Counted from the stretch's first letter, positions 1,301 through 22,207 are shown. The stretch: DNA of 64,000 nucleotides from an uncultured Acidobacteriota bacterium (GCA_964421755.1 CAYQYP010000204.1:9746-73745); one strand, 5' to 3'. Program-made: numbers and translations. Notes: generated by a model not told the origin, from the sequence alone.

Positions 1301-1873
1301 TCAACTGTGGTCCCGAGAGCGCCGGAGCTGGCCGTTAACGCCGACCCGGGGCGGCTTCTCAAGGAGTCCCTCGAGGAGCTCCACCTGCCCTTCGAGGTGA
1401 AGGAGCCGGGTCCTTTTTTCCTGCAGCAGTCGAATCAATGAAGGCACCGGCTGGCTGCCATTTCCGTTATTGCCGCCGAATCTGCTTCGGCCATTGTCCC
1501 GCGTCGAAAACGGTCCGGCAAGTCGAAGATCAAGGCGAACCGATTGCGGCGTGACGCCGAACTGTTTTTTGAAAGAGCGGTGAAAATTCGAGCGGTCCTC
1601 GAACCCGACTCGCCTGGCAATTTCTGCGACCGTGAGGTCGGAGTGTTTCAATAGACGTTCCGCCTGTATGAGCCGGAGCTCCCCCACCAGGTTCTTGACC
1701 GATCGTCCGACGTTTTTGCGGAAGAGGTGCTGCAAGTGGCTTGGGGTAAGACGAGCCTCCTGAGCGAGATCAGACAGCAGGATCTTTGAGGTCGCATTCT
1801 GGCAGATTCGGCGAATTACGTAGCTGACTCTGGGGTCAAACGTGCTGCGAGTTCTCGATGTTTGCGAATGCAT
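1301..1873 (-). CDS. Short AraC/XylS-family transcriptional regulator, HTH domain only.
   Basis: HTH_18-type helix pair: ICQNATSKILLSDLAQEARLTPSHLQHLFRK...LTVAEIARRVGFEDRSNFHRSFKKQFGVTP. The C-terminal tail is low-complexity. Confidence 0.7.
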   Translation of the reverse strand: MHSQTSRTRSTFDPRVSYVIRRICQNATSKILLSDLAQEARLTPSHLQHLFRKNVGRSVKNLVGELRLIQAERLLKHSDLTVAEIARRVGFEDRSNFHRSFKKQFGVTPQSVRLDLRLAGPFSTRDNGRSRFGGNNGNGSQPVPSLIRLLQEKRTRLLHLEGQVELLEGLLEKPPRVGVNGQLRRSRDHS

Positions 1874-2207
1874 GTCTTGAGATTAGTGCGCCCACAAATG
1901 CGTTCGCAAATTTTTTTGTATATGCCAAAAAACCGCGGGATTTCGGGAACCAGAGGCGTCGCGAGGGCAGGCTGGGAGGGCCATTGTTCGTCCCGCGAAC
2001 CAGCCTGAGGTCCCCGAAATCTGCCGGCCGGCCGCACGTCCTAATGGTAACCGGCCATTGCTTTCACTACACCGATGTTTGCACCCGGAACCGGTCAGTT
2101 GGGAGGCCCCAGGCAGCTGCAATTCGGTTGTCGGTTGGCCTTATAGACGCTATACTTCCGCATTTGTGCAGAGGCGGCTTGGGAGTTGTCTGCCCTGAAG
2201 GAAGGTT

Positions 2208-2744
2208 ATGAGTCGAATTCGCAACCGTCGATTCTGGATGACCTCTGGTGTCGGTGTCCTTATCTCTCTGGCCGGATTGACGGCGAATCGTGTTTTCGCC
2301 GACGACGCGATGCCGAACATCGTGGTGTCGGTTGGCCTGAAGGTTCTCAGCATGCAGAAGCAGTTCAGCGGGAAGCCGGAGGGCATCACAGTGTTCGTGC
2401 TCGATGACGCGAACGTCGCCAAGGCGTTCCAGGCGAGTGTTAACACGACCGTTGGTTCCATGAAAGTGGCCCGAGTTCTTTCAGGCTCGGAGCTCCCGAC
2501 GGAAAAGCCGGATGTCCTTTTCATAGGCGGCAGAGACAAGGTCGAGGCGGCTATCGCCTATACCCGCACACAGAAGGTCCTGAGCATGGCCAGGAGCGAC
2601 AGACTGATTTCCAAGGGAGTCACTCTGACGGTTTACCAGACTCCGGACGGCAAAGCGCAGATCACGATGAACATGTCGGGGGCGTTGCTCGAAGGCGTGG
2701 ACATCAACCCGGCGACTCTCAAGGTGGCGAGCGTGGCCAAGTAA
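2208..2744 (+). CDS. YfiR-like (DUF4154) periplasmic protein with a signal peptide.
   Basis: Signal peptide MTSGVGVLISLAGLTANRVFA. The C-terminal segment DVLFIGG...KGVTLTVYQ...DGKAQITMNMSGALLEGVDINPATLKVA resembles the YfiR/DUF4154 fold. A GAAGG Shine-Dalgarno precedes the ATG. Confidence 0.55.
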   Translation: MSRIRNRRFWMTSGVGVLISLAGLTANRVFADDAMPNIVVSVGLKVLSMQKQFSGKPEGITVFVLDDANVAKAFQASVNTTVGSMKVARVLSGSELPTEKPDVLFIGGRDKVEAAIAYTRTQKVLSMARSDRLISKGVTLTVYQTPDGKAQITMNMSGALLEGVDINPATLKVASVAK

Positions 2745-2787
2745 GACTTGGCGCTCCAACTGACTATGGGCCACAGGTAACAAGACA

Positions 2788-4818
2788 ATGAACCTCTCAT
2801 CTATTCGAGTCAAAATCCTCTCGATCGTAATCGGCATTGGGGTGGTCTTCAGTCTGTTGCTGGCCTTTTACACGCCCTACCAGTCAAAGGTGATGGGAAA
2901 CGCCATCCTGCTCAAAAACGCCGAGTTCATAACCAATCTGCTCGCCGATAACCTGGCCCTGGGTATGCAGACCATCATCGTCGACGATGGTGCCGCTCTC
3001 AAGCAAACGCTTTCGCTGCTAAACGGTCGGGAGAATGAAGAAGCCATCTCCACGGTGCGGATTTTCGACGACCAGATGAAATACGTCGACGGGCTGAAGG
3101 GTGAGGCGCAGAAGGCCGTTCTCGGGCCGGTCGAGAGGATGTTGCTCGAAGATCAGGGCGACCGGTTGCTGGCCTGGACGCCGATGCGGGACGCCGATCG
3201 AAAGACCGTGGGGTATCTGGAGATCGAATTTTCCAAGGGATATCTGGAGGCGGCCAGTACCCAAAACGCCAGGCGTAACCTTCTGATCGCCGTAGCTGCC
3301 TTTGGACTCACCATGCTGATCACACTTTTGACCGTCGGCAAGGTTGTCCAGGCCATTCAACGCCTATCGGTCGCGGCACGGCACGTTACCTCGGGCAAGA
3401 TCGATGTTTCGATCGATGTCAACTCCCAGGACGAGGTGGGAAATCTGGCGGAATCGCTGCGGGAAATGATTCGGATTCAACGCGAACGGGCTGTTGCGGC
3501 CAACCGTTTCTCGCAGGGAGACCTGAGTGCCGAGGTGAGGACTATGGCCGACGACGATGTTCTGGGCAACGCCATGGTCCGGATGAAAGAAAAGATACAG
3601 TCAATGGTCGGCGAGATCCGGTTGCTCGCGTCCGCCGCAGTGGAAGGACGACTCGGCTATCGCGCCGATGTATCCCGCCACGGCGGCGAGTTTGCCGAGA
3701 TCATCAGCGGTGTAAACAACACGATGAGCGCGGTCATCGGTCCCATCAACGAGGCGTCCTCCGTGCTGGAGCGTGTTGCCGCAAAGGATCTGACCGCTCG
3801 CGTAGCCGGAAGCTACAAGGGTGAGTTGGTCACGATGACAGTGGCGATGAATACCGCTGTTGACAACCTGGACAAGGCGCTCCAACTGGTGGTTGCAGGG
3901 GCCGAGCAGGTTGCGTCCGCGTCCAGCCAGATCACCGGAAGCAGTCGCTCGCTGTCGGAGGGCGCCGGGCGTCAGGCCAGCACCCTGCAGGAGGTGTCGA
4001 GCAACCTCCAGGAGATGGCAGCCACAACCACGCAGAACGAATCAAGCGCCAAAGAAGCTCACCGGCTCTCAGCCGAAGCCCAGACGAGCGTAGACCACGG
4101 AATGGCGGACATGAAACGGCTGTCGGACGCCATCGCTCGGATCAAGGCTTCCTCCGATTCAACCGCAAAGATTGTAAAAACAATCAATGAAATTGCGTTT
4201 CAGACCAACCTGCTCGCCCTGAATGCCGCCGTTGAGGCGGCCCGGGCTGGCGACGCGGGTCGCGGGTTCTCGGTCGTGGCGGAAGAAGTGCGTAACCTGG
4301 CCATGCGCAGCGCCGACGCGGCAAGGAGCACGTCGAACCTGATCGAGGAGTCGGTAAGGAACGCGGAGGCGGGCGTCACCATCAATCACGACGTGGTCGG
4401 GAGCCTCTCCCAGATCGCCGGCCAGGTGACCGCCATGCGAAACGCGCTCGCCGAGATTGCGGCCGCATCCGAACAGCAGAGCCTCGGCCTGCATCAGGTG
4501 AACACCGCGGTCGAGCAGATCAACCAGGTAACCCAGCAGACCGCGGCGAGCGCCGAGGAGTGCGCCAGCGCAGCTTTCGAGTTAAACCAGGAAGCGGACG
4601 AAATGAAGCGGATGGTCTCAATGTTCCACTTGAGCGGCGGGGAGCTACACAAAGACCGCGAAGAACAGGGACTTGACAGCCTGCAGATGGGGTCGAAGCC
4701 GCTTGTCCCGGGCAACGGCGCTCAAAAACGCCTGAATCCTAACCCTCTGCTCCCCGGGGCGGGCAGGACCATTGAGGCAGCAATCTCCCGCCGGACAGAC
4801 CGATACACCGGGATCTGA
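2788..4818 (+). CDS. Methyl-accepting chemotaxis protein with an N-terminal transmembrane helix, a periplasmic sensor region, HAMP repeats and an MCP signalling domain.
   Basis: Transmembrane helix [18 protein letters not shown]. Second transmembrane helix [23 protein letters not shown]-like segments. Conserved MCP core [43 protein letters not shown]. Confidence 0.9.
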
Positions 4819-8884: not shown

Positions 8885-10237
8885 ATGCCTTTCCTACAGC
8901 AGGAATCAACCATGTCCGATAACAAAACAGTCTCACCGGAATCGAGCCTGGCCATCGACGGAGGCCAGCCCGTCCGCACCGCGCCGTTACCTCTCGAGTT
9001 CCCTGGGGTGCACCACATGGACGAAGAGGAGGTCGAGGCCGTTGTGCAAGTGCTTCGGTCGCGGTCGCTCTTTCGCTACTACGGCATAGAGCCGCAGAAG
9101 CAGGTTGAGCAGTTTGAGGCGGATTTCGCGAAATTCATCGGGGTCAGGCACGCCCTCGCCGTCAGCAGCGGCACAGGAGCGCTGCACGTAGCCCTGGGCG
9201 CGCTGGGGGTCGGCCCGGGTAAGGAAGTGATCATCCCGGCTTATCTCTGGGTGGCCGTTGCTTCTGCCGTCGTCAACAACGGCGGGATCCCGGTGCTTGC
9301 TGACATCGACAGCTCATTTTGCCTCGATCCCTCGAAGCTCGGTCAGTACATCACGGACAAGACTGCCGGCGTCGTCCTGATCCATATGAGTGGTGCTCCG
9401 GGTAACGCGTCGGCTGTGCGGGATATCACCCGGGACAAAGGCGTCTTCCTGCTCGAAGACTGTGCGCAGTGTGCGGGGGGAAGAATTAATGGCCAGAGCG
9501 TGGGCACCTTCGGGAACATGGCGATCTTCAGCTTTCAGATGAACAAGAACATGACGGCCGGTGAAGGCGGTTGCGTGGTCACGAACGACGTTCGTCTGTA
9601 CCGTCGGGCATTTGCATGCCATGACTTGGGATACGCGCGGGATGAGAACGGGCGCCTCCAGTTCGAGGACCCGGAGTTGTGTCTTTGGGGCAGGGGGTAC
9701 CGCCTGGACGAGCTGCGAGCCGCGGTGCTGCGGGTTCAGCTGCGGAAGCTTCCGGCCATCATCGGGCGCATGCGGGCCAGCAAGTACAGGATACGTGCCG
9801 CCTTAGCAGAATTCCCTCAGGTTCAACTGCGCACCATTGTCGATCCGGCTGGAGATACGGGCTGCTTCCTGATAACAACTTACCGTGATCAGGCGACGGC
9901 CGCCCGGGTCAATGCCGCCTTGCGGGCTGAAGGCCTGGTCACGTGGCCCCAGGGGATCTCGAACGTCCTCATGACCCAGTGGGGACTTCACCTGTACTAC
10001 AACATCCCCAGCCTTGTCGGCCGAACGAGCGTGGATGGCCGTGGATTTCCCTGGAGCCTGCCAGCAAACACGGGGTTGGGCGGTCAGTACGCCAAGGGAA
10101 GCTGTCCGGTCGCAGATGACCTGTTCTCGAGAAGCGTCTTGCTGGCGATTCCGTCTTGCCTTACCGAGAAGGACGAGGACGACATCATCGCGGGGTTCCG
10201 AAAAGTGCTGCGGGAACCACGGACGAACACGGACTAA
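8885..10237 (+). CDS. DegT/DnrJ/EryC1/StrS-family PLP-dependent aminotransferase or dehydratase.
   Basis: N-terminal segment EEEVEAVVQVLRSRSLFRY...VSSGTGALHVALGALGV. FQMNKNMTAGEGG is the PLP-lysine region. The C-terminal extension is longer than usual. The start could alternatively be 8912. Confidence 0.85.
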   Translation: MPFLQQESTMSDNKTVSPESSLAIDGGQPVRTAPLPLEFPGVHHMDEEEVEAVVQVLRSRSLFRYYGIEPQKQVEQFEADFAKFIGVRHALAVSSGTGALHVALGALGVGPGKEVIIPAYLWVAVASAVVNNGGIPVLADIDSSFCLDPSKLGQYITDKTAGVVLIHMSGAPGNASAVRDITRDKGVFLLEDCAQCAGGRINGQSVGTFGNMAIFSFQMNKNMTAGEGGCVVTNDVRLYRRAFACHDLGYARDENGRLQFEDPELCLWGRGYRLDELRAAVLRVQLRKLPAIIGRMRASKYRIRAALAEFPQVQLRTIVDPAGDTGCFLITTYRDQATAARVNAALRAEGLVTWPQGISNVLMTQWGLHLYYNIPSLVGRTSVDGRGFPWSLPANTGLGGQYAKGSCPVADDLFSRSVLLAIPSCLTEKDEDDIIAGFRKVLREPRTNTD

Positions 10238-10330
10238 AACGCGGACCAACACGGACGAACGCGGACCGACGCACGGTGGCGGAAGCTTCGTCCGTGTCAG
10301 TCGGTTCGGTCGTCCGTGCTTTCCGTGTAC
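10225..10330. terminator. Candidate bidirectional terminator and repeat cluster between convergent genes.
   Basis: Several ACGGAC(G/T)AAC direct copies. Inverted partners are CACGGACGAAC...TTCGTCCGTG and GGTCGTCCGTGCTTTCCGTG. No clean U-tract. Confidence 0.3.
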
Positions 10331-10332
10331 CC

Positions 10333-11433
10333 CTACCGGTCCACCCGGGCGGTACCGCCCTTCATGACTTTCTCAACTTCCTTCAGGCCCGCGGTCGTCG
10401 TATCGCCCGGCGTTGTCATCGCCAATGCGCCGTGCGCGGCACCGTAGTTCGCGGCCTCCGCCACCGACTTACCTTCCATCAGTGCATAGACGACCCCCGA
10501 GGCGAAGCTGTCGCCGCCTCCGACGCGGTCATAGATTTCGAGATTCTCTCGGAGAATGGCGTCGCCGAACTCTCCGCCGGCGTACACGATCGCACCCCAG
10601 TCGTTGATCGATGCGGTTTTGGCGTTACGCAGCGTGGTCGCCACCGCCTTGAAGTTCGGGTATGTCTTGACCGCCTCGGAAATCATCTTCTTGAAGTTGG
10701 ATGGATCAAGCTTGGAGCATCCCTCGTCGAGACCCTCCACCTTGAAGCCGAGCGCGGCTGTGAAGTCCTCCTCGTTGCCGAACATCACGTCCACGTGTGA
10801 GGCAATTTCGCGATTCACCTGGACCGCCCTTTCAGTTCCGCCAAAGTCCTTCCACAACGACGGGCGGAAGTTCAGGTCATAGGAGACGACTGTCCCGTGT
10901 CTCTTCGCCGCGGTCATGGCCTCGATGATGACTTCGGGCGTCGTGGCGGAAAGCGCCGCGTAGATGCCTCCGCAGTGAAACCACCGGATCCCGTCCTGCC
11001 CGAAGATTCTCTCCCAATCGATATCGCCCTCCTTGAGCTGAGAGGCAGCTGAATGCCCGCGATCCGAACAGCCGACCGCCGCCCGAACACCGAACCCGCG
11101 CTCGGTAAAATTGAGTCCGACCCTCGCCTTACGTCCGATCCCATCGTAGGGAACCCACTTCACGTATTCCATGCTGACGCCCCCTTGCAGGATCAGGTCT
11201 TCGAGGAGCCGACCCACAGGGTTGTCAACGATAGCTGTGACAACAGCCGCGTTCTTGCCGAAACAACGGCGCAGGCCGCGTGCAACGTTGTACTCTCCGC
11301 CTCCCTCCCAGACACGGAAGGTCCGGGTGGTGTGAATCCGGTTGTCACCCGGATCGAGTCGGATCATGATTTCTCCGAGCGACAGGATGTCGTACTTGCA
11401 CTCCGATTTAGGCTTTACATTGAGAACGGGCAT
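10333..11433 (-). CDS. PfkB/ribokinase-family sugar kinase similar to 2-dehydro-3-deoxygluconokinase KdgK.
   Basis: Start moved to the internal ATG at 11433, which has a GGAGGAG Shine-Dalgarno 6 nt upstream. Reads MPVLNVKPK...ILSLGEIMIRLDP. The C-terminal GGGDSFASG...AAHGALAMT is the pfkB signature 2. Confidence 0.8.
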   Translation of the reverse strand: MPVLNVKPKSECKYDILSLGEIMIRLDPGDNRIHTTRTFRVWEGGGEYNVARGLRRCFGKNAAVVTAIVDNPVGRLLEDLILQGGVSMEYVKWVPYDGIGRKARVGLNFTERGFGVRAAVGCSDRGHSAASQLKEGDIDWERIFGQDGIRWFHCGGIYAALSATTPEVIIEAMTAAKRHGTVVSYDLNFRPSLWKDFGGTERAVQVNREIASHVDVMFGNEEDFTAALGFKVEGLDEGCSKLDPSNFKKMISEAVKTYPNFKAVATTLRNAKTASINDWGAIVYAGGEFGDAILRENLEIYDRVGGGDSFASGVVYALMEGKSVAEAANYGAAHGALAMTTPGDTTTAGLKEVEKVMKGGTARVDR

Positions 11434-12591: not shown

Positions 12592-15261
12592 TCACTCCTC
12601 CCGCAGCGCGGCGATCGGATCGACCCGTGTGGCGCGATGGGCGGGCACGAGGCAGGCGATGATCGCTACCAGCGTGATCACGGCCGCAACGCTCACCATC
12701 GTGGCCGGATCAGTCGGCCGGACCTCGAAGAGCAGCGTCTCCATCAACCGCGTCAGCGCGAGTGCACCGGCCAGCCCAGCCGCCAGGCCGATAAACGTGA
12801 GCTTCAGGCCATGCGCCATGATGCTGCGCAGCACGGCCTCACGCTTCGCGCCGAGCGCCATCCGGATGCCGATTTCACGGCGCCGCTCCGTCACCAGATA
12901 CGAGAGCACGCCGTAGGTCCCGATTGCGGCGAGCAGGAGGGCGAGGGCAGCGAAGCCGGCGAACAGGTGCATCAGCATGCGGGGCCGGCCGAGGGAACCG
13001 CTGATCACTTCATCCATGAGCTGCAGCCGGATAATCGGCAGCGAGGGATCGGCCTCACGTACGGCGGCGGCAATCGGTGGCTGCAGCGTGGCCATCGGCA
13101 GCGCACTCCGCAGCACGATATTCATGTTTCCGTCATGCCCCCAGTCACCGAGGTTAGGACCGGAAATGGTCGGGAAGATTTGCGGCAGCTGCTCGAGCAG
13201 GAAGTACAACTCGGTGCCGGTTGCCTGGTCGACGCCACCCTGCTTGACATCCTTCGCCACGCCAACGACCGTGACCCAGGGCGTCCCGTCGCCGAAGCGC
13301 GGCCTGACCCGACGACCGATCGGGTCGAGATCCTTCCAGAACCGGCGAGCGAACGTCTCGTTCACGACCGCCACAAGAGCGCCGATGCGATCAGTCTCCT
13401 CGAACGGACGGCCCTCCACGATCGGTATCCCCATCGCCTGGAAATAGCCCGTGGTGACCGTCTGGTAATAGTCCACCCAGTTGCGTGGCGTCTCCGGTGG
13501 CGGTGTGTAACCTTCGATGTCCGTGCCCAGGCCGTTGACCTCCCGCTGTGGAGGCAGCCCGGACACGGCCGACACACGTTCGACGCCGGGCATGGCGGCG
13601 AACCGATCGATCAAGCGTTGATACAGCCGCAGCCTCTCGTCGAAGTTGGGGTACGTGGAGGCGGGGAGCGCGACCCCGAACGTGACCAGCCGCGATCGAT
13701 CGAATCCGGGGTCGACCTTCATTAGATTCATTACCGTCCGGAGCATCAGCCCCGCGCCCACCACGAGCACAACCGCGAGTGCCACTTCAGCGGCGACAAG
13801 AGCACGGCGCACTGCATGACGGGTACTGGTCGAGCCGCGCGTCGCACGCTCGTTCAGCAGACCGCTCGGGCCTTGGTGGAGGGAATGCAGCAGTGGCGCC
13901 AGCCCGAACGCGACGCCGGTGGCGACTGATACGAGCAGTGTGAAGCCGAGCACCGCTGGATCGATGGCAATGTCGGCGACACGCGGAAGACTATTGGGAT
14001 ACGCAACGATCAACGCCCGCACACCAGCCCAGGCCAGGGCCAGGCCGATGGTGCCGCCGACGAGCGACAACACGACGCCTTCAGCCGTAAACTGGGCGAG
14101 CAGCCGCCGCCGGCCGGCTCCCAGTGCCGCGCGCATGGCGAGCTCGCGCCGTCGGGTCTCGGCGCGCGCCAGCAGGAGGTTGGCCAGGTTGGCGCAGGCG
14201 ATGAGCAGCACCAACGCTACCGCCGCCTGCAGCATCCAGAGGGCACGCCGTGCCGAGCCGACAATCTCGTCCTGCACGGGCTCCATCTGCATGACGTGGT
14301 CGCCACGCTTGAAGACGTGCCCGTTCACGCCGGCGCGTTCACCCCAGTTCGCAACGAGCGACGCAAGCTCCGCCTCGGCCTGCTGTGCGGTCACTTCATC
14401 TTTCAGACGGCCCAACACATTGAGAAAGTGACTCTCTCGAAACTGGCGAAAAGCAGGAGCGAGCTGGAGCGGCAGCCACACATCGACCCGGTTGTCCATC
14501 AGGTCGAAGCGGGCCGGCATGATGCCAATGACCTCGCGCGTGAGACCGTCGATCTCGATCGTGCGGCCGACGATGTTCTCACGTGCGCCGAAGGCCGACC
14601 GCCACAGCTCGTGCGACAGGATGACAAGTGCGGGCCCGTTCGCGCGCGTCTCGTCCCGACGGAACCACCGGCCGCGCTCTGGCTGGACGGCGAGCACCTC
14701 GAGCAATTCTGCATTCACCGTGGCCCTCGTGACGCGCCGCGGACGATCGAGGGCGGCGAGATTCACCTCGCCGATCGTGAACGCGCCGACGACCGAGAAG
14801 GACCGATTGATTTCAGTGAGCTCGAAATATTCCGGCGCCGACACCGAGCTCTGCTCCACCCCCTGGCGCTCGAACCGCGTTGTCAGGAACCGGAGCTGCT
14901 CAGGGTGTGGATACCCGAGTGGCTTCAGGATCACGGCGTTGACGACCGAGAACATCGCGGTATTCGCACCGATTCCGAGGGCCAGTGTCAGAACCGCGAC
15001 GGTTGTGAATCCCGGAGCTTTCCGGAGCGTGCGGAGCGCGTACCGAACGTCCTGGACGATCTCGTCGATCCAGCGGCGGGTCCACACTTCCCGGACGTCT
15101 TCCTGTGTGCGCGTCACGTTGCCGAACGCGCGGCGTGCGGCGTACTGCGCATCCGCCTCGGACATACCGTCAGCGACACGCTCCTCGGCCTCCAATTCGA
15201 GGTGCGTCTGGATCTCGCGTTTCAGCTCGTCATCGTGATCTCTCGGCATAGCGTTTCTCAC
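12592..15261 (-). CDS. ADOP-family duplicated FtsX permease (MacB-like, two FtsX domains).
   Basis: 889 aa. N-terminal prefix [51 protein letters not shown] is characteristic of ADOP permeases. Two four-helix FtsX modules. The many antisense ORFs in the track are shadows of this gene. Confidence 0.9.
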
Positions 15262-15276
15262 AGACCCCGACGAATC

Positions 15277-15603
15277 TCAAACACGCTTCAGCACCCGAGC
15301 CATCGCACGAACCAGCTCGTCCCACTTGCTCTCCTCGACCGACAGCTGCTTCCGGCCTTTCGGTGTCAGCCGGTACATGCGCATTTCGCGTCCGCTTTCC
15401 GTCTGCTCCCAGTTCGACGTGATGCAGCCGCTCTTCTCCAGGCGGTGCAAGGCCGGGTAGAGCGACCCGTGCTCCACCTGCAGGACGTCTTCGGACGTGC
15501 GCTGGATATGCTTGGCGATGCCGTGGCCGTGAAGGGGACCAAAGAGCAGGGTCCGGAGGATCAGCAGTTCGAGGGTGCCCTGGACGAGCTTCCGTTCTGG
15601 CAT
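15277..15603 (-). CDS. PadR-family transcriptional regulator, the partner of the ADOP permease.
   Basis: Start taken at the internal ATG 15603. Reads [34 protein letters not shown], a canonical PadR N-terminus. The longer track ORF extends across the operator palindrome. Confidence 0.85.
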
Positions 15604-15641
15604 AGTAGGTATTCTACCATCATTGGTAGAATACCTACTAT
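15602..15641. promoter_or_regulatory. Perfect 18-bp inverted repeat overlapping the PadR start codon, a putative autoregulatory PadR operator.
   Basis: ATAGTAGGTATTCTACCA-TCAT-TGGTAGAATACCTACTAT, with 18/18 complementarity. It lies immediately upstream of and overlapping the ATG of padR. Confidence 0.6.
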
Positions 15642-15655
15642 CCACTTTCTTCCTT

Positions 15656-17284
15656 TCAAAACCTGAAGCCCGCGCCGACACTGATCCTCGGAGTGTGCCG
15701 GGTTTCGAACTGGCCTTGAAAAAATGGCGGCTCAGAGGCGGAGTAGCGCCACATACCCATCGGTTGAGAAACAACCGTGTCCGTTACATCCAGTCGGAAG
15801 AAGAATCGATCGGATCGATAGACACCGAAATCGTAGACTTCCAGTACTCCTCCAAAGTCCAGGGCAAACCGGTTTGCATTGACGATTAGATGCGTGACGT
15901 TTAAGGAACCCAAGTGCTTGCGTTCGGTTAGGAATCCCGGCCGGACGACCCCGAACACGCCCCAGCCCGGCCTTCTGACCCCTGCCTTGACTCCAAACAA
16001 TGTAAGAAATCTTTCTTCAAAATTGCCCGGCCAGTAGTTGGTTTGCCCCTCGAGCGCCAGGTGGTTATTCAGATTGTAGGCGAACCTCGCACCACCGCCC
16101 CGCTCCCCGAACTGTCCCGGTGCAGCAGCCACAGAAAGGAAGTGACTAAACGAGGAGTAGTGTCCTCCAATTTCGAATCTCTTCACCGCCGGCGGCGCAG
16201 GTTTGTCGCCCTGGTAAATAGAGGGGCCGCGGAGAATGCTCGGTTCCTTTTTGGTTAAGGTGAAACGGCCACTGTCCAGGACTATGGTTTGCTTTTCAGT
16301 CAGCCGGATCGAAGCTGCGCGGAAGTCGCTGCCTGAATCGATGTAGATCGAGTAACTCCCGTCTTGCATTCCAAGCGCGATTTGGCGGCCTTCCGTTTTG
16401 AGCAATTCGGTCACCAACTGCCTGTCTGCATTCAGAATGTAAACCCGGCCACTTAGGGCTTCGGGGAGCACGAGTATCGAGGACACCCCGCGAACGTCGG
16501 TCAAGACCAACTCGCCAGTGCCCGACATCTGGATATCGTAAGCAGGATGCTGGGGCCCGCCCTGAGTTTTTGCAGTCCGGCCGAGTGTCTCGTTGTATGA
16601 GAAGTCATAGGCCTCGTTCAAGCTGACCTTGCCGTCTGTGTTTGAGTCGGCCGCGCCCCTCAGCGCTGAGATGAGATAGTAGGTAAAGAAAGATGCCCGA
16701 ATCCGGTCTGATTCCTGGGCGGTTTCATTCTCCGAGCTGGAGGTGAGGAAGGCATAGCCTTTCATATCGGCGGGCGATGTAGCCAGAAAGGCTGGTTCCC
16801 GAATGACTCCCTTCTGCCTGGTTATGGCGCCGGACGCACACGCGTCGAGCACCGCCACGTTTACATCCGCCTTAAGAAGGGCCATCTCTTCCCTGATCTT
16901 CGGGTAGGGAAACCGGGTTCCCCCGAGCAGAAGACCCTGGTCATCTGCGTGGCCGGAGTAGTAGAAGAGGACCTCCACACGTTCATTGGCCGCCCGGCTT
17001 TCCTTGATCTCAACCCTCAACGCTTCAAGCGCCTTGCCGAAGTCAATCAAGGAAGGCTCCCGGAGAATCCGGCAATCCTCCCTTCGCACGCCGCCAAGCT
17101 GTTGCATCAGTCGGGCAAACGCTTCGGCATCGGAGACCGCATAGCTCAAGGTCGGGCGACTGGGGCCACCCCGGTTGGCACCCGAAACGATCGCATAGCG
17201 GCGAACGGCAGCCGCCGAGGAGAGCGAGTGCGCCAGGATAAAGACGATCAACAGGGCGAAGAGGGTCAAAATAGGTTTTTTCAT
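15656..17284 (-). CDS. Secreted caspase-family (peptidase C14) protein fused to a C-terminal beta-barrel, outer-membrane-like domain.
   Basis: Signal peptide [26 protein letters not shown]. Catalytic His in [13 protein letters not shown]. Catalytic Cys in [11 protein letters not shown]. The C-terminal ~250 aa has alternating amphipathic beta-strands and ends ...ISVGAGFRF (terminal Phe, the OMP signature). The start overlaps the anti-sigma stop (ATGA). Confidence 0.75.
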
Positions 17285-18075
17285 CGTGTTTCTTCCTTTT
17301 GGAGCAGTACCGTCGACTGTTGATAGCCGGCAGGCAGCGACAGGCCCCCGCTTCGGTGATCCCAACTCGTCTTCGGTGTCCGTATTGCGTCCTTAACCAG
17401 CTGGACCGGGAACGGATGATTGGATGTAACAAAGAAAAAGATCTCTCCTTTCGGCGCTTGATCCAGGCGGAAGGCCGAAGGTAAAGGAGTTGCTCGTCCC
17501 TTGGAAATCTCAACCGCTTGAACCCCCTGCTCGGGGAGATGCTGAGTGATGCTTCCTTGCCCGTCCACCGAGAGAATGGCTCCGTAACTGTGTCCGGCGG
17601 AGTAGTAGGACAACTGAATGAGGTCATTACTTCCCACTTTGCCGCCGTCGCTGAGCTGCCGAATCCCTTCGGCTGTCTTTAGGAAGACGAGTAAGCGTGT
17701 TTGATCTCCCTTCGCACGCACTCCTTCTACTGGGGGCTGGGTGGCTTGGTTGGCCTGCCAGAAAAACGGCAAGCTGAGTCCGGCGATCAGCATGGCCGAC
17801 AACAACGCGAGACTGAACGGGGAGAAGAACAGGCTTCGAACAGGTCCGCGTTTCTGCTCGGCCGGGGACACCATCCGATCGCGGATCTTGGCGCTGAACC
17901 GGTCAGGCGGGTACCGACTGAGAAGCGCTTCACCAGATTGCCGAAGCTGGTTTAGCTTCTGGGCAACGGCTGGGTCCGAGGCGACAGCCCGTCTCACCTG
18001 CTCGGCCTCGTTGGGTTCCAACTCATCAAGCAGGAAGCGTTCTAGCCAAATCTCCGGGATCTTCTGGCTGCTCAT
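17281..18075 (-). CDS. Membrane-spanning anti-sigma factor without a zinc finger, with a periplasmic C-terminal domain.
   Basis: Start at the internal ATG 18075, with a GGAG Shine-Dalgarno and ATGA overlap with the sigma stop. N-terminus MSSQKIPEIWLERFLLDELEPNEAEQVRRAVASDPAVAQKL is an anti-sigma N-terminal domain. Transmembrane helix SLFFSPFSLALLSAMLIAGLSL. About 150 aa periplasmic region. Confidence 0.7.
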   Translation of the reverse strand: MSSQKIPEIWLERFLLDELEPNEAEQVRRAVASDPAVAQKLNQLRQSGEALLSRYPPDRFSAKIRDRMVSPAEQKRGPVRSLFFSPFSLALLSAMLIAGLSLPFFWQANQATQPPVEGVRAKGDQTRLLVFLKTAEGIRQLSDGGKVGSNDLIQLSYYSAGHSYGAILSVDGQGSITQHLPEQGVQAVEISKGRATPLPSAFRLDQAPKGEIFFFVTSNHPFPVQLVKDAIRTPKTSWDHRSGGLSLPAGYQQSTVLLQKEETR

Positions 18076-18584
18076 AGTTTCTCCAGTTCTCGCAGGCTTT
18101 TTCTCAAGCGCTCGAGTCTCTTTCGCACTCCCGAAACCGACATCCGGAATTCGACAGCCACCTGCTCCAATGTCATTCCGTCCAGGAAATGCATAACCGC
18201 CATGACCCGGGAGGAGACAGGATGTCGTCTGAACAACTTCTCGAGGAGCATGGACGAGTCCCAATCCGGAACCGCCGCTATGCAGCGCAGAAGCTCTTCC
18301 TCGCTGTTCATCTCTCTTGCCCGATGCTTGCTTCGGATCCGGTTCAGGCAAACGTTTGTCGCAATCCGATAGAGGAGGCTGGACGGGTAATCGGGAGTCA
18401 GTTTGGTGCGATGCTGAATGACTTGGACGAAAACATCCTGCATGGCATCCTCCGCTTCCCGTTCGTCGCACAGTAGTTTCAGGCATCGCCTGAAGACCAT
18501 AGGACCGTAGCGTTGATAGAGGTCCGCAATATCCATAGCCGCGCTCGTCTCGAACGACCACCGGTTGTCGTGTGTTTCCCGCAT
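18072..18584 (-). CDS. ECF-subfamily RNA polymerase sigma-70 factor.
   Basis: Region 2 DIADLYQRYGPMVFRRCLKLL...AEDAMQDVFVQV. Region 4 LEQVAVEFRMSVSGVRKRLERLRKSL. The track ORF begins at a GTG at 18605. The ATG at 18584 (MRETHD) is proposed as the start. Confidence 0.85.
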   Translation of the reverse strand: MRETHDNRWSFETSAAMDIADLYQRYGPMVFRRCLKLLCDEREAEDAMQDVFVQVIQHRTKLTPDYPSSLLYRIATNVCLNRIRSKHRAREMNSEEELLRCIAAVPDWDSSMLLEKLFRRHPVSSRVMAVMHFLDGMTLEQVAVEFRMSVSGVRKRLERLRKSLRELEKL

Positions 18585-18777
18585 CTCTATCGTCTTGTTC
18601 CGCACCCTTAAACACCGGGAGAATTGCGATCTGTCACCTCGTGGGAACTTTTCTTATCTCCCATCTCGCTTGCGAACCGCTTGAAAATGGAAAACGAAAC
18701 ACCGGTTCCCAGAATCGAGGCAGTCAATTAGATGCAGCAAACCCGCTGGATGGTCGCAAGACAAGGAGCGACGACGG

Positions 18778-19001: not shown

Positions 19002-20171
19002 ATGAGAAGTGTGTTATTTGTAATTCTGTCCGGCCTCCTCTTCACTATCGTCATAGCGCTCAGCCTCCGCACCAGCGCAGAAGCTGTGGCGGCCGAAAAG
19101 GCGACCTCCTCCGCAAAGATGGAAGCCGCTTACTTCGCGGGCGGCTGCTTCTGGTGTGTGGAAGCGGACTTCGAAAAAGTGGACGGAATCACCGAAGTGA
19201 TATCGGGTTTTGCCGGAGGAGAAAAGGAAAACCCTGCGTACCAGGAAGTATCCGCGGGGCGAACCGGACACACGGAATCGGTGAAGGTGATCTATGATCC
19301 CGCGAAGATCAGCTACTCCGAGCTGCTCCAAGTGTTCTGGACGCACATCGATCCGACGGACAAAAACGGCCAGTTTGTCGACCGGGGAAGGCAGTATCGC
19401 AGTGCGATCTTTTACAGCAATGAGGCAGAGCACCGGCTTGCGGAGGCTTCAAAGAAGCTACTGGAAAATTCCGGGGTGTTCAAGAAACCGATCGTGACCG
19501 AAATCGTTCCGCTCACCAAGTTCTACGAGGCGGAGAAGTACCACCAGGATTTCTACAAGAACCATGCGGACCGATACCGGAGCTACCGGTCCGGCTCCGG
19601 GCGGGATCAATTCCTCGCCAAGACTTGGAAAGCCCGTACCTTTGATTTATCCAAGAACTTAAAGGAGAGCCAGATGGAAGCGACGAGCAAGACAGTATCC
19701 AACCGACAATATAGCAAGCCCGACGACAAGGAGCTGCGCGAGAGGTTAACGCCGATTCAATACAAGGTCACGCAGAAAGAAGGAACCGAGCCGCCGTTCA
19801 AAAATGAATATTGGAACAACAAAAAAGAAGGCATTTACGTGGATGTCGTGACCGGAGAGCCCCTCTTCAGCTCGCTGGACAAATACGATTCGGGGACCGG
19901 CTGGCCGAGCTTCACGAAACCGCTGGAAAGGACCAACATAGTCGAAAGAGAAGACCGGAGCTTGTTCGCGTCACGGACCGAGGTCCGAAGCAAGCACGGG
20001 GGTTCCCACCTCGGTCACGTTTTTCCGGACGGCCCCAGACCAACCGGCCTGCGCTATTGCATGAATTCCGCCGCGCTCAGGTTCATACCCAAGGAGGACC
20101 TCGCCAAGGAAGGCTACGGCGAGTACGCACGGCTGTTCGAAAAAGCCGAAACGCACGCCGAGGCGGAATGA
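19002..20171 (+). CDS. msrAB: Membrane-anchored or secreted bifunctional peptide-methionine sulfoxide reductase, an MsrA-MsrB fusion.
   Basis: AAGGAG Shine-Dalgarno 6 nt upstream. Signal/anchor [19 protein letters not shown]. MsrA motif [12 protein letters not shown]. MsrB motif in the C-terminal half (GTGWPSF...[11 protein letters not shown]). Confidence 0.9.
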
Positions 20172-20253
20172 GGCGGGCAAGGGTGGCTTTGCCCCCTAGG
20201 GGGCGCAAAAAAGCACGACTGGACGTAGGAAAAAAGGAAAGTACCGATTCGAC

Positions 20254-21234
20254 ATGAAATCGCAAATTCAGACAGACCTCAACGTGTTCGACCAAGCGGT
20301 GTTGAACCATGAAGGCACACCGTTGCACGGTTTGGATCTCACCACCATCCAGGTCAATATCGGTCTGACCTGCAATCTGAAGTGCGTGCACTGCCATGTA
20401 TCCTCCGGTCCGACCCGTAAGGAACAGATGAGCTGGGAGACCATGGAACTCGTTCTCATTGCCGCGCGAAAAGTGCACGCGCGTCTGGTCGATATCACTG
20501 GCGGAGCTCCCGAGATGAACCCTCATTTCCGACGGTTTGTGGCAACACTACGGGATGAGGGTTTCGAGACTCAGGTCAGGACAAACCTTACGATTCTACT
20601 CGAGTCCGGCTATGAGGACCTGATCCCTTTCATGGCAGACCGAAAAGTCAGGCTGGTGGCCTCCCTTCCCTGTTACCTCGAGCAGAATGTCGACAGCCAG
20701 CGCGGCGAGGGCGTGTACGAAGGGAGCATCCGGGCCATTCAGCTGCTGAACACTCACGGCTACGGCCTGAAGGAGGACCTGCCGCTCGATCTGGTTTACA
20801 ACCCGCTGGGCCCGGTGCTTCCACCGAACCAGGAGCGCCTGGAGGAGGATTACCGCCAGGAGCTTGGCCGGCGATTCGGCATCCATTTCACCCGGCTGCA
20901 TGCCCTCGCCAACATGCCGATCGGACGCTTCCGGGTCATCCTTCGACACGAGAGAAAAGACGGTGACTATCAGTCGCTTCTCGAGCGCACATTCAATCCG
21001 CGAACACTGGAGGGGCTGATGTGCCGTCATCAAATCAGCGTGGATTGGACCGGCGCTCTTTATGACTGTGACTTTAATCTGGCCACGCGTCTGCCTCTAA
21101 ATCACGGGGCGCCGACGCATATCAGGGATTTCGATCCCGACACGCTGGTCCGACGCCGGATCGCGACAGCCCCCTATTGCTTCGGGTGTACAGCCGGCTG
21201 CGGCTCGTCCTGCGCAGGCGCGCTGGTGAAGTAA
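20254..21234 (+). CDS. Radical-SAM protein with a C-terminal Cys-rich domain (rSAM/Cys-rich family, ArsS-like).
   Basis: CX3CX2C motif in GLTCNLKCVHCH. C-terminal cluster APYCFGCTAGCGSSCAGA. Confidence 0.75.
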   Translation: MKSQIQTDLNVFDQAVLNHEGTPLHGLDLTTIQVNIGLTCNLKCVHCHVSSGPTRKEQMSWETMELVLIAARKVHARLVDITGGAPEMNPHFRRFVATLRDEGFETQVRTNLTILLESGYEDLIPFMADRKVRLVASLPCYLEQNVDSQRGEGVYEGSIRAIQLLNTHGYGLKEDLPLDLVYNPLGPVLPPNQERLEEDYRQELGRRFGIHFTRLHALANMPIGRFRVILRHERKDGDYQSLLERTFNPRTLEGLMCRHQISVDWTGALYDCDFNLATRLPLNHGAPTHIRDFDPDTLVRRRIATAPYCFGCTAGCGSSCAGALVK

Positions 21235-21271
21235 TCCTGTGAATCCGGTTAATCCTGTCTAAAGGCTTTTT

Positions 21272-21307
21272 GACAAGATTGACAAGACTAACAAGATTAA
21301 CGAGATC
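21272..21307. repeat. Four tandem imperfect 9-mers (GACAAGATT type) in the promoter region of the DUF547 gene.
   Basis: GACAAGATT GACAAGACT AACAAGATT AACGAGATC. They embed two TTGACA hexamers. A TAATCCTGT direct repeat lies just upstream at 21232-21258. Confidence 0.7.
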
Positions 21308-21328
21308 ACTGGCAACCGTGAGGACATC

Positions 21329-22207
21329 ATGATTCGAAAAGCGCCTCGCTCGACTCTTCTCCTGCTGGTGCTCGTCGCTGCGTCCGCGTGTACCGGAGAT
21401 GAGCCAACCGTTTCGGCTGTCGATTCCATTCCCACAAATCTCAGCGCGACAGCGGATGACGCTTTCCGCACGGTGCTTTCAGAGCGAGTCAAAGGACAAG
21501 GTCTGGTCGACTACAAAGCGCTAAAAGCCAACCACCAGGCACTCGACAGTTACGTCAGGTCACTCGCGGGACTGGACCCGAAATCATACGAAGCATGGAA
21601 CGACGGCAGGAAGATTGCCTTCTGGATCAACGCTTATAACGCTCTGACACTCAAGTCGATCGTCGATCACTATCCGATTAGAAAAGGCGGGTTGATTAGC
21701 GGCGTCCGGTTTCCAGAGAACAGCATTCGCCAGATCCCCGGCGTCTGGGACAAGGTCAGCCACTCGATCAAGGGAAAGCCGATGACCCTCGATCAGATCG
21801 AGCACGATGTACTGCGAAAGCAGTTCGACGAGCCCCGCATCCACATGGCGCTCGTTTGTGCGGCAATGGGCTGCCCGCCCCTGCGAAATGAGCCGTACAC
21901 CGGCGATCGCCTTGATGCCCAGTTGACCGACCAGGCGCGAAGGCTCTTCTCGGATTCGGGCAAGTTCCGAATCGACCGGGAGAACGAGACAGTGTACCTG
22001 TCGAGCATCTTCAAGTGGTTCGGCGCGGACTTCGCGCGAAAGTACTCAACCAAAGAATTCCAGCAGGTCAGCGCGGGCTTGCGTCCGGTCATGAATTTCG
22101 CGGCGCAACATCTTAGCCCGGCGGATGCCGAGTACCTGAAGACCCAGCGATATACTGTCGCCTACCTGGACTATGACTGGTCGCTCAACGAGAAAAAAGC
22201 ACGATGA
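21329..22207 (+). CDS. DUF547-domain lipoprotein.
   Basis: Signal and lipobox LLLLVLVAASACTG. The DUF547 core reads FWINAYNALTLKSIVDHYP...HMALVCAAMGCPPL. Confidence 0.75.
   Translation: MIRKAPRSTLLLLVLVAASACTGDEPTVSAVDSIPTNLSATADDAFRTVLSERVKGQGLVDYKALKANHQALDSYVRSLAGLDPKSYEAWNDGRKIAFWINAYNALTLKSIVDHYPIRKGGLISGVRFPENSIRQIPGVWDKVSHSIKGKPMTLDQIEHDVLRKQFDEPRIHMALVCAAMGCPPLRNEPYTGDRLDAQLTDQARRLFSDSGKFRIDRENETVYLSSIFKWFGADFARKYSTKEFQQVSAGLRPVMNFAAQHLSPADAEYLKTQRYTVAYLDYDWSLNEKKAR

Follow-up and report, generated by a model that had tools for sequence, protein, structure and literature searches.

Three overlapping genes in the window, by which we mean the whole 64,000-nucleotide stretch analysed here from an uncultured Acidobacteriota bacterium, encode an ECF sigma factor, an anti-sigma factor and a secreted caspase fused to an outer-membrane beta-barrel, and together they constitute a real, self-contained envelope signalling cassette that is probably autoregulated, the sigma factor being expected to use the operon's own promoter. 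Two features of the cassette are strongly supported: a zinc-free anti-sigma factor of class I tethers the sigma factor to the inner membrane, and the protease is fixed in the outer membrane through its C-terminal barrel. We tentatively propose, giving it a little under an even chance, that this periplasmic, outer-membrane-tethered protease performs site-1 cleavage of its own anti-sigma factor, a mechanism each step of which we infer. The operon is laid out as follows.

18611..18637, minus strand: ECF-type promoter (-35 GTGACA at 18637..18632; 15-nt spacer; -10 GGTGTT at 18616..18611)
18072..18584, minus strand: ECF sigma factor gene, 170 aa, start ATG at 18584
18072..18536, minus strand: the same gene from an alternative start, ATG at 18536, 154 aa
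18072-18075, minus strand: ATGA junction of the sigma and anti-sigma genes
17281..18075, minus strand: anti-sigma factor gene, 264 aa, single-pass class I
17281-17284, minus strand: ATGA junction of the anti-sigma and caspase genes
15656..17284, minus strand: secreted caspase-barrel fusion gene, 542 aa, starting MKKPIL

The three minus-strand genes are joined by ATGA overlaps in the order sigma, anti-sigma, caspase. This coupled arrangement had been described in a first-pass annotation of the window and both junctions were recovered here; the end coordinate given there, 18730, is too far upstream, with the conserved promoter lying at 18637..18611. Because the promoter occupies those positions, a GTG at 18605 in the ORF-finder listing, considered as a sigma start and rejected, is not a start codon; it is within about 6 nt of the -10 element. 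The 170 aa and 154 aa variants of the sigma factor are both present as public gene calls. The first gene had been read as an ECF sigma-70, and profile searches agree, with matches to Pfam Sigma70_r2 (3e-14) and Sigma70_r4_2 (5e-6), and to TIGR02937 at 5e-20, above that model's cutoff; the nearest solved sigma structure to the product of 18072..18584 is SigW (1e-9). The combination of these three domain matches within 154–170 aa is that of the ECF (group IV) sigma-70 factors, and the context is also typical of the group, with a cognate anti-sigma gene co-transcribed through an ATGA overlap and conserved -35 and -10 elements upstream. The sigma factor may already have an ECF-group number.

The triad is far from peculiar to this genome. 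Caspase homologues number about 1000, relatives of the caspase are encoded at at least 562 loci in species-representative genomes, and the anti-sigma family comprises about 2200 cluster representatives at E <= 1e-30. Among 79 loci that were fetched, 75 have the sigma, anti-sigma and caspase genes in that order, usually overlapping, such that the triad is syntenic across at least six phyla (Acidobacteriota, Latescibacterota, Gemmatimonadota, Fibrobacterota, Spirochaetota and Myxococcota), as a check of the gene neighbourhood had been meant to establish. The sigma/anti-sigma junction is an overlap of -4 at 54 of the 75 loci, and the anti-sigma/caspase junction is -4 or -1 at 45 of them. All-against-all clustering of the flanking ORFs yielded no conserved fourth gene, with no cluster represented at more than 13 of the 79 loci; the clusters that are shared seem to result from synteny within lineages, most of the examples listed being from Latescibacterota. 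A chance origin is excluded because the same three genes occur in the same order at 75 of 79 related loci, and since order and overlap are kept across phyla and no other gene is conserved beyond the lineage level, the three proteins form a functional unit.

The promoter is conserved along with the genes. About 54 of 71 related loci, drawn from several phyla, have a sequence of the form GTRACA-N15-(G)GTGTT ahead of the sigma gene, and when metagenomes were matched to a strict form of the motif, 42 of 121 hits preceded a sigma gene of this family. A search across the 64-kb window recovered no copy beyond that at 18637 (0.3 expected in shuffles), and therefore no local regulon is visible from the window. 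The operon is thus probably transcribed by its own sigma factor from GTGACA-N15-GGTGTT. The same element is present in other genomes upstream of outer-membrane and TonB-system genes, the extra copies preceding TonB-dependent receptor-like proteins, small OMP-like proteins and DUF3450 proteins; in Fibrobacter-type loci and in locus L022, for example, it lies before TonB-dependent receptor-like genes and a DUF3450 protein. The TonB-dependent receptor-like genes of this putative regulon have CarboxypepD_reg and Plug domains only. Two further arrangements are informative. First, locus L001 has a permuted gene order with the caspase gene first, and the promoter is still upstream of the operon. Secondly, L022 has a second caspase copy with an ECF promoter of its own and without an adjoining anti-sigma gene.

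These genomic contexts bear on the suggestion, made in the first-pass annotation, that the operon could be a self-destruct or defence device, in which envelope damage by a phage would free the sigma factor and the caspase would kill or arrest the cell. Caspase-family proteases and ECF sigma/anti-sigma pairs do co-occur in defence systems (PMC11506125), an argument by analogy only, the models being the defence islands under DdvS/DdvA control and the caspase-like proteases associated with CRISPR. However, none of the three proteins matched a PADLOC model at E <= 0.01, the triad has no conserved defence genes beside it, the additional promoter copies lie in front of genes for small OMP-like, DUF3450 and TonB-dependent receptor-like proteins, and a membrane-tethered caspase in the periplasm is not an obvious means of killing a cell. 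We regard a defence role as very improbable, and the suggestion finds no support in the PADLOC search, the neighbouring genes or the genes behind the extra promoter copies.

The anti-sigma protein has the following parts.

aa 8-69: anti-sigma helices
aa 86-108: transmembrane helix
aa 105-122: disordered linker
aa 127-260: Ig-like beta-sandwich

An N-terminal helical domain followed by one transmembrane helix is the arrangement of a class I anti-sigma factor (ASDI). The zinc-binding (ZAS) motif HxxxCxxC is absent from both the protein and the family consensus, and its absence here follows from there being no Cys or His in the cytoplasmic aa 1-85. The earlier description of a transmembrane anti-sigma factor with no zinc finger and a periplasmic domain of about 150 aa therefore fits well, the periplasmic part being about 155 residues long and including the 135-residue Ig-like sandwich. 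Fold searches with the periplasmic domain gave only generic and weak similarities to Ig-like, CBM and macroglobulin folds, from which no ligand prediction follows, and a profile search gave no match to a FecR domain. The window's anti-sigma factor matches DUF4384 (PF14326) weakly, with E 0.084 and 13.4 bits where the cutoff is 27, and 10 of 44 homologues match this family at E <= 0.01, the best at 4e-5. Several relatives, from Hyalangium, Myxococcota, Spirochaetota and Gemmatimonadota, are named "ActD-like protein" by NCBI; NCBIfam models gave no match to a protein so named.

The third gene product is organized as follows, with the catalytic residues and the barrel listed by their coordinates.

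aa 1-26, signal peptide; aa 27-254, C14 fold; aa 260-335, beta-sandwich; aa 336-368, linker; aa 369-542, barrel
16949..16951, minus strand: codon of catalytic His112 (YYSGHAD)
16838..16840, minus strand: codon of catalytic Cys149 (DACASG)
15659..16180, minus strand: C-terminal 8-stranded outer-membrane beta-barrel, about 174 aa, ending GAGFRF

Peptidase_C14 (PF00656) matches aa 28-215 with an E-value of 4e-10, above cutoff, and Foldseek aligns the domain with metacaspases at 1e-6 to 1e-4, and also with caspases, such that the caspase-hemoglobinase fold and the His-Cys dyad of Peptidase C14 are both present; the nearest NCBIfam caspase model scores below its cutoff (62 bits against 140). The identification of a signal-peptide-bearing C14 caspase with an intact dyad (H112 of SGH, C149 of DACASG) is thus upheld, and since both residues are invariant in 40 homologues the protease looks active, as judged from sequence. 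The homologue alignment shows that D52, S110 and D147 are invariant as well. D147, two residues before Cys149, occupies the place of TbMC2 Asp211, and D52 aligns with the Asp of the C-x-x-D motif (C-I-N-D in the C. glabrata metacaspase). In metacaspases a basic P1 residue is bound by S1 residues that include an acidic pair, Asp95 and Asp211 in TbMC2 (PMC6426788; see also PMC8283722), and D52, S110 and D147 all stand at such S1 positions. With D52 and D147 the protein has the acidic S1 site of the metacaspase/orthocaspase branch, keeping both of the Asp residues that give metacaspases their specificity for Lys or Arg, and the same specificity is predicted here.

The C-terminal part had been described as a single domain of about 250 aa with a barrel-like ending. 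The barrel stands, but it is not a single unit: the roughly 290 residues that follow the caspase fold divide into the beta-sandwich, a low-confidence linker of about 30 residues and the barrel. The AF2 model of the fusion (pLDDT 77.5) has eight strands over aa 369-541 (369-380, 393-404, 409-419, 423-438, 441-458, 466-484, 494-515 and 518-541), which Foldseek matches to the OmpA transmembrane domain, Ail, OmpX, OmpW and NspA with E-values of 1.7e-8 to 1e-5; eight antiparallel strands and a C-terminal Phe are the features of an 8-stranded OMP, and the structural check of the C-terminus thus predicts a barrel of the OMP type. PF13505 does not match the window protein at E <= 0.1; many homologues carry a precomputed match to it, and the protein of locus L017 scores above cutoff, so that membership of the PF13505-type barrels rests on fold and family and not on the window sequence's own score. 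The middle beta-sandwich was also compared with the anti-sigma periplasmic domain, and homology was rejected (hhalign probability 1%).

Barrels of the 8-stranded OmpA/OmpX type have both termini in the periplasm, and therefore a protease domain fused at the N-terminus should hang into that compartment. We thus place the metacaspase-like domain, on the strength of the barrel class, in the periplasm on a flexible linker. The signal peptide and C-terminal barrel of one protein, and the single transmembrane helix of the other, put the protease domain and the anti-sigma domain in the same compartment. Surface exposure of the caspase is unlikely, and "surface-anchored", as the protein had been called, is probably wrong for the same reason of barrel topology.

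Proximity of this kind could also serve a non-destructive complex, in which the caspase or its beta-sandwich shields the anti-sigma factor from other proteases, in the manner of RseB with RseA, or an R-x-K-G motif of the anti-sigma factor (see below) acts as a pseudosubstrate and holds the protease inactive until a signal parts the two, and the pair would sense envelope integrity through contact between the outer and inner membranes. The overlapping genes imply stoichiometric co-expression, the partners sit on flexible tethers from opposite membranes, and a periplasmic co-regulator that is co-transcribed is already familiar from rpoE-rseA-rseB. Nonetheless, the invariance of the dyad and S1 residues speaks for the importance of catalysis. 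If the role were binding alone, some lineages could afford to lose the dyad, as the pseudo-orthocaspases have (PMC6426788), but all 40 aligned homologues keep it; we consider a purely binding complex improbable.

A further link between the two periplasmic proteins is a four-residue motif.

17707..17718, minus strand: anti-sigma R120-A-K122-G123, candidate motif for site-1 cleavage, where the juxtamembrane linker ends
16808..16819, minus strand: caspase R156-Q-K158-G159, candidate site of autoprocessing, in the loop that follows the catalytic Cys

Within the anti-sigma family K122 and G123 do not vary, and conservation of R120 is 90% or more; 76 of 78 homologues contain R.KG, whose Lys follows the transmembrane helix by a median of 18 residues. 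In the caspase R156, K158 and G159 are invariant, the loop at aa 151-161 has pLDDT below 50 in the AF2 model, and TR.KGG was found in 76 of 78 homologues in a first scan and R.KG in 77 of 79, 7–10 residues after the catalytic Cys. By comparison, R-x-K-G is present in 1 of 76 sigma factors, with a background of 0.04 per 264 aa. Its occurrence in both partners, each time in a segment predicted to be flexible, appears to be described here for the first time. The caspase segment could instead be a structural active-site loop, and the anti-sigma motif, which abuts the first strand of the folded domain, could be structural too.

We propose that an envelope signal would activate the protease, probably through self-cleavage at its own T-R-x-K-G-G loop beside the active site, and that the activated caspase would then cut the anti-sigma factor after the Lys of its corresponding R-x-K-G, some 18 residues beyond the inner membrane. 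Regulated intramembrane proteolysis would begin with this site-1 cut; a site-2 protease and cytoplasmic proteases would clear the short stub that remains, the sigma factor would be released, and fresh anti-sigma factor made from the same message would reset the switch. The earlier suggestion that the caspase cleaves the anti-sigma factor, offered only as an example, thereby gains specific but indirect support from the shared motif and the metacaspase-type acidic S1 pocket, its individual steps staying conjectural. Two further points count against it. First, a protease encoded in the operon that it turns on creates positive feedback, which needs a latch. Secondly, the orphan caspase of L022 fits a regulated effector as well as it does an amplifier.

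The caspase could instead be an output of the system, with the Ig-like domain sensing a ligand or stress, DegS/Prc-like and site-2 proteases degrading the anti-sigma factor, and the induced caspase processing or breaking down further proteins of the periplasm or outer membrane, in outer-membrane quality control or remodelling. In every arrangement seen, including the permuted L001 and the orphan L022 copy, the caspase gene is behind a sigma-dependent promoter; the promoter copies before TonB-dependent receptor-like, small OMP-like and DUF3450 genes suggest an envelope regulon that may include the caspase; and the anti-sigma domain weakly resembles ligand-binding Ig-like and CBM folds. An output role leaves unexplained, however, why the same invariant R-x-K-G is found in the anti-sigma linker and in the caspase, and why the caspase, alone of the putative regulon, is always translationally coupled to the anti-sigma gene across six phyla. 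We think it unlikely, if a serious contender. In its broadest form, which we hold tentatively and at clearly less than even odds, the site-1 proposal would make the triad a widespread and hitherto undescribed cross-envelope signalling system, with the caspase, tethered at the inner face of the outer membrane, as a dedicated site-1 protease that also uses R-x-K-G for self-activation, and with outer-membrane and TonB genes under its control; it might even be what the ActC/ActD timing module of Myxococcus development is biochemically.

Within the literature searched in full text, no paper describes a sigma/anti-sigma/caspase-barrel triad, and caspase and C14 go unmentioned in the main text of the ECF reclassification paper. 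Pairs of ECF sigma and anti-sigma factors count among the commonest signalling devices of bacteria, and the trigger is known for only a minority of groups; the triad operon itself seems to name one, in the form of a dedicated protease, and the two proteins have a four-residue motif in common. Its hosts belong to groups important in soil, sediments and the rumen, and include at least one cultivable genus, Fibrobacter. If the site-1 proposal is true, the triad would be the first case of transcription being controlled by a periplasmic switch of the caspase type, one found in six or more phyla, and would give bacterial caspase homologues a concrete function other than death.

The closest mechanistic parallels are the RpoE-RseA-RseB/DegS and SigW-RsiW/PrsW systems, which the triad resembles in its autoregulated promoter and in a site-1 cut proposed to fall beside the membrane, with a short stub remaining for a site-2 protease. 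It differs in that the candidate site-1 protease is a cysteine protease of the caspase family, where DegS is a serine protease and PrsW a metalloprotease; in that its gene belongs to the operon and is translationally coupled to that of its substrate; and in that it is anchored in the outer rather than the inner membrane. The triad is also like FecI-FecR-FecA in having three components distributed across the outer membrane, inner membrane and cytoplasm, and in a promoter that drives TonB-dependent receptor-like genes (Fibrobacter-type loci, L022), but signalling of the FecIRA type is not indicated: the anti-sigma factor is without FecR, and the outer-membrane partner is an 8-stranded barrel with a protease, not a TonB-dependent transducer with a signalling domain. 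The likeness to ActD of the Myxococcus xanthus act operon is confined to the NCBI name on anti-sigma relatives, and no actA- or actB-like genes lie beside the two Myxococcota triad loci examined. With metacaspases and orthocaspases (C14B; TbMC2, AtMC4/9, MaOC1) the caspase shares its fold, the His-Cys dyad and two acidic S1 residues; type II metacaspases and MaOC1 are activated by self-cleavage after Lys or Arg in the linker following the p20 part. Unlike them, the triad caspase is secreted, fused to a barrel and encoded in a dedicated sigma/anti-sigma operon.

Caspase-superfamily proteases have been connected to ECF sigma factors before. In the DdvS/DdvA pair of Myxococcus xanthus, DdvA has a periplasmic caspase-superfamily His-Cys module that is proposed to cut the linker between the transmembrane and periplasmic parts, followed by RseP-type proteolysis (PMC11506125). 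The triad is alike in that a periplasmic protease of this superfamily is proposed to cut an ECF anti-sigma factor between the transmembrane helix and the periplasmic domain. However, the DdvA protease is of the CHAT type with TPR repeats, in a protein of about 900 aa in which it is fused to a zinc-binding anti-sigma factor, and is narrowly distributed (Myxococcota and one Comamonas), whereas the triad has a zinc-free anti-sigma factor, whose periplasmic part is an Ig-like sandwich and not a TPR-CHAT fusion, and a separate C14 protein with its own barrel, in six or more phyla. In the type III-E craspase, Csx29 (TPR-CHAT) cleaves Csx30, one C-terminal subgroup of which is DUF4384 (bioRxiv 10.1101/2022.08.17.504292). 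There too, in a system that includes Csx31 and the ECF sigma factor RpoE, the flexible linker of an anti-sigma-like protein is cut by a caspase-like protease so as to modulate an ECF sigma factor, and DUF4384, the family of that Csx30 subgroup, is also the one to which the anti-sigma periplasmic domain here has its weak match. Craspase is nevertheless cytoplasmic, RNA-guided, CRISPR-associated and of the CHAT type, and cuts after Met or Leu; no CRISPR or defence context was seen at the triad. With the triad, caspase-superfamily proteases would have been linked to ECF sigma factors three times independently, which suggests a recurrent evolutionary solution, to which the triad adds another form of regulated anti-sigma proteolysis with a caspase as the candidate protease.

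Three genes lie together on the minus strand, and the ORF list, the raw sequence and the domain matches bear out their first-pass annotation as an ECF sigma factor, an anti-sigma factor and a C14 caspase with ATGA at both junctions, where the stop codon of one gene overlaps the start of the gene that follows it.

Ending at 18072, minus: sigma gene
17281..18075, minus: anti-sigma gene, 264 aa, beginning MSSQKIPE
15656..17284, minus: caspase-like gene, 542 aa, beginning MKKPIL

The sigma protein matches Sigma70_r2 (3e-14) and r4_2 (5e-6) in Pfam and TIGR02937 (5e-20) in NCBIfam, and is an ordinary ECF member. The N-terminal part of the anti-sigma protein matches the NCBIfam "antisigma" model at 8.5e-8, under the cutoff, and residues 151-207 give a faint Pfam match to DUF4384 (E 0.08); of 44 family members, 10 match this domain, the best at 4e-5. 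The structure predicted by AlphaFold2 with 22 sequences (pLDDT 84) has the following parts.

Anti-sigma aa 8-69: four N-terminal helices
Anti-sigma aa 86-108: one transmembrane helix
Anti-sigma aa 105-122: disordered linker, pLDDT below 50
Anti-sigma aa 127-260: confident beta-sandwich

Because the cytoplasmic part contains neither Cys nor His this is not a zinc anti-sigma, and the earlier description of a transmembrane protein without a zinc finger holds; it is an ordinary zinc-free class I member. An exhaustive profile search yields 2207 cluster representatives at E <= 1e-30, almost all of 245-315 aa, and some cluster members carry the JGI label "anti-sigma factor RsiW". Several relatives (P0130, P0218, P0294 and P0308) are named "ActD-like protein" by NCBI, a name that could connect the family with the act operon of Myxococcus xanthus, an operon that, going by the title of Gronewold and Kaiser (2001), controls the level and timing of C-signal production; P0130, the one such protein scanned, matched no NCBIfam model.

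The caspase matches Peptidase_C14 (Pfam, residues 28-215, 4e-10) and belongs, within C14, with the metacaspases and orthocaspases. AlphaFold2 with an alignment of 40 homologues (pLDDT 77.5) predicts five segments.

Caspase aa 3-22: signal helix
Caspase aa 27-254: caspase fold
Caspase aa 260-335: small beta-sandwich
Caspase about aa 340-368: low-confidence linker
Caspase aa 369-541: eight long antiparallel strands

In Foldseek searches of the PDB the N-terminal part resembles fungal and plant metacaspases and caspases (E 1e-6 to 1e-3), and the C-terminal part, which terminates in GAGFRF, resembles the OmpA transmembrane domain, Ail, OmpX, NspA and OmpW (E 1.7e-8 to 1e-5); by fold, the barrel belongs to the OmpA/OmpX class. 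H112 (YYSGHAD) and C149 (DACASG) are invariant in the 40-homologue alignment, as are D52, S110 and D147. The predicted fold and the alignment uphold the C-terminal beta-barrel and the His/Cys dyad of the first-pass annotation. Its surface anchorage probably does not stand: to our knowledge both termini are periplasmic in all solved 8-stranded barrels of this class, from which we infer a protease domain that sits in the periplasm, tethered to the outer membrane on its inner side. The protein would thus be a mirror image of OmpA, not a surface-displayed enzyme. In a profile search of PDB sequences D52 falls opposite the Asp of C-I-N-D in the Candida glabrata metacaspase, and D147 precedes the catalytic Cys by two residues; these are the positions of TbMC2 Asp95 and Asp211, the acidic pair through which Lys/Arg is accepted at P1 (PMC6426788; PMC8283722).

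About 1000 homologues of the caspase, around 555 aa long, are detectable, and many of them carry both PF13505 and PF00656. The C-terminal anchor is variable, with an 8-stranded barrel in forms of about 520-600 aa and a larger C-terminus in its place in forms of 660-800 aa (Fibrobacter, Spirochaetes, Myxococcota and Gemmatimonadota). The larger C-terminus matches the NCBIfam LA_2272 surface-repeat and VC2662-family models in the two proteins tested, from fetched loci L063 and L077.

Loci L019, L021, L024, L029, L039-L041, L046, L048, L062-L070, L075, L077, L079: caspases of 660-800 aa, C-terminal region ending WPGF.xGLRxGR(F)

A scan of one genome per species gave at least 599 pattern matches, at least 562 of them encoding a caspase relative, and 79 loci were fetched; triad members were called by searching their six-frame ORFs with the three window proteins. 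The sigma gene was found in 76/79 loci, the anti-sigma in 78/79 and all three in 75/79, the missing members being mostly attributable to contig ends. The triad is therefore syntenic in related genomes of several phyla, with hosts labelled Acidobacteriota, Latescibacterota, Gemmatimonadota, Fibrobacterota (including Fibrobacter succinogenes), Spirochaetota and Myxococcota; CP070717.1, OX638329.1 and F. succinogenes S85 are examples of complete genomes with it. The order is sigma, anti-sigma, caspase with one exception (L001), the first junction having a 4-nt overlap in 54 of the 75 loci and the second a 4- or 1-nt overlap in 45. Clustering of all flank ORFs in the 79 loci revealed no further conserved gene common to more than 13; the triad is a conserved, mobile unit. 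The same clustering shows no defence neighbours, and none of the three proteins has a PADLOC match, for which reasons a defence or self-destruct device, also suggested initially, is very improbable, and we do not regard the locus as one.

Several departures from the common arrangement were seen. L001 is rearranged (517-3765; promoter-caspase-sigma-anti-sigma), as is L022 (1368-5682): here an orphan caspase behind a promoter of its own is succeeded by a TonB-dependent receptor, likewise promoter-driven, and finally by a sigma gene where the contig ends. Since L022 and L018 belong to one MAG, that genome carries two caspase copies. A second caspase paralogue lies about 1.7 kb downstream of the first (around 9200-11000) in the Latescibacterota loci L003, L007, L009, L013, L015 and L020. 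In L002 (7435-9168), from a MAG with no label beyond 'bacterium', the caspase is directly followed by a gene for an Omp85-superfamily protein with a fused DUF4252 (Pfam), and related ORFs come after the caspase in 9 loci.

The triad is flanked in the window by the following genes, the three upstream ones assigned by eye.

12592-15603, minus: PadR-family regulator (Pfam 3e-22), then an 889-aa FtsX/MacB-like permease
19002-20171, plus: MsrA/MsrB fusion with signal peptide, divergent from the triad
20254-21234, plus: radical-SAM-like protein with CxxxCxxC
21329-22207, plus: secreted protein

The downstream pair, of regulator and large permease, resembles by eye the acidobacterial 'duplicated orphan permease' arrangement; in other genomes it is not a conserved neighbour of the triad. 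A perfect 18-bp inverted repeat (ATAGTAGGTATTCTACCA / TGGTAGAATACCTACTAT, 4-nt gap; 15602-15641) lies between the stop codon of the caspase and the PadR gene, whose start codon (ATG 15603..15601) it includes. The repeat is probably the operator of PadR and could also serve as a hairpin at the end of the caspase operon, but no T-run follows it on the minus strand.

When 5-mer/gap/4-mer pairs were counted without bias over the 200 nt preceding the sigma genes, GTGAC-N17-GTGT emerged in 33/71 loci versus 0 controls, and the aligned element, (G)GTRACA(C)TTT...(G)GTGTT-N-A, is present across phyla in about 54/71. The window contains exactly one copy (18637..18611; 0.3 expected in shuffles), and none precedes any of the three divergent genes (19002-22207, plus). 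Its -10 element ends a few bases before GTG 18605, and the real sigma start is therefore ATG 18584 or ATG 18536, both of which are present among public gene calls. The promoter is partly palindromic (GTGACAC...GTGTYAC), here at 18611-18637 and at equivalent sites in L012, L035, L065 and L068, and several loci therefore match the pattern on both strands at one site; the symmetry might conceivably serve, for example, a dimeric repressor.

Extra copies in the fetched loci precede the caspase itself (the caspase-first operon of L001 and the orphan copy of L022), TonB-dependent receptor-like proteins (L022, L070 and L075), an FMN reductase, and small secreted Spirochaetes proteins that end in Phe, have no Pfam match and look OMP-like by eye. 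A metagenome scan with a strict motif version, a variant that biases the sample towards Fibrobacter, gave 121 sites; the first downstream ORF is a triad-type sigma at 42 of them, a DUF3450 protein (Pfam 2e-22) at 10 and a Fibrobacter-type TonB-dependent receptor-like protein at 8. One further metagenome protein behind a promoter copy (L117) has the LA_2272-type repeats of the long caspases.

L070:8421-10922 and 12736-13161, L075:9899, and metagenome loci L080-L189: promoter-preceded Fibrobacter-type genes

In Fibrobacter-type DNA the promoter precedes a receptor-like protein of about 830 aa and a 278-aa DUF3450 protein, which suggests that the sigma factor controls a TonB-dependent uptake system in this lineage. 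With OMP-like genes also preceded by it, the regulon looks envelope-centred in this Fibrobacter-biased sample.

The main new argument that the anti-sigma may be the substrate of the caspase is a motif shared by the two proteins. R156, K158 and G159 of the caspase are invariant, 7-10 residues past C149 in alignment columns, and sit in a loop (151-161) not placed by AlphaFold; caspases and type II metacaspases process themselves in the loop that follows the catalytic Cys. In the anti-sigma, R120 (at least 90% conserved) and the invariant K122 and G123 stand at the end of the disordered linker, the motif Lys being a median of 18 residues past the transmembrane helix. R.KG occurs in 77/79 caspases (consensus T-R-[LIVA]-K-G-G), 76/78 anti-sigmas ([TD]-R-[ILV]-K-G) and 1/76 sigmas, compared to a background of 0.04 per 264 residues in 2592 flank ORFs, and an S1 pocket specific for Lys/Arg would fit it. 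We therefore propose a concrete, testable mechanism in which an outer-membrane-tethered periplasmic zymogen would be activated by self-cleavage and would then serve as site-1 protease for the anti-sigma, cutting it at R-x-K|G; at 18 residues from the membrane, such a cut would leave a stub small enough to be taken by a site-2 protease, and intramembrane proteolysis would free the sigma factor to transcribe its own operon and envelope genes. As either motif could instead have a structural role, we put forward the model as a whole tentatively, as plausible if a little short of probable. Its main rival, built from the same parts, takes the caspase to be a regulated effector, and we consider it rather unlikely; a non-destructive caspase/anti-sigma complex, or a pseudosubstrate, is more doubtful still.

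Full-text literature searches found no paper describing the triad, and the sigma factor possibly has an existing ECF-group number. The window locus belongs to a large family of signalling cassettes that is broadly distributed and apparently uncharacterised. The closest known cases are DdvA, with a periplasmic CHAT domain proposed to self-cleave (PMC11506125), the craspase system Csx29-Csx30-RpoE, where DUF4384 forms the C-terminal domain of one Csx30 subgroup (bioRxiv 10.1101/2022.08.17.504292), and ECF54, whose genomic context includes CHAT proteins (PMC8999054). Unlike the triad, none has a separate outer-membrane-anchored C14 protease; each part of the triad comes from a known family, and the novelty lies in their combination.
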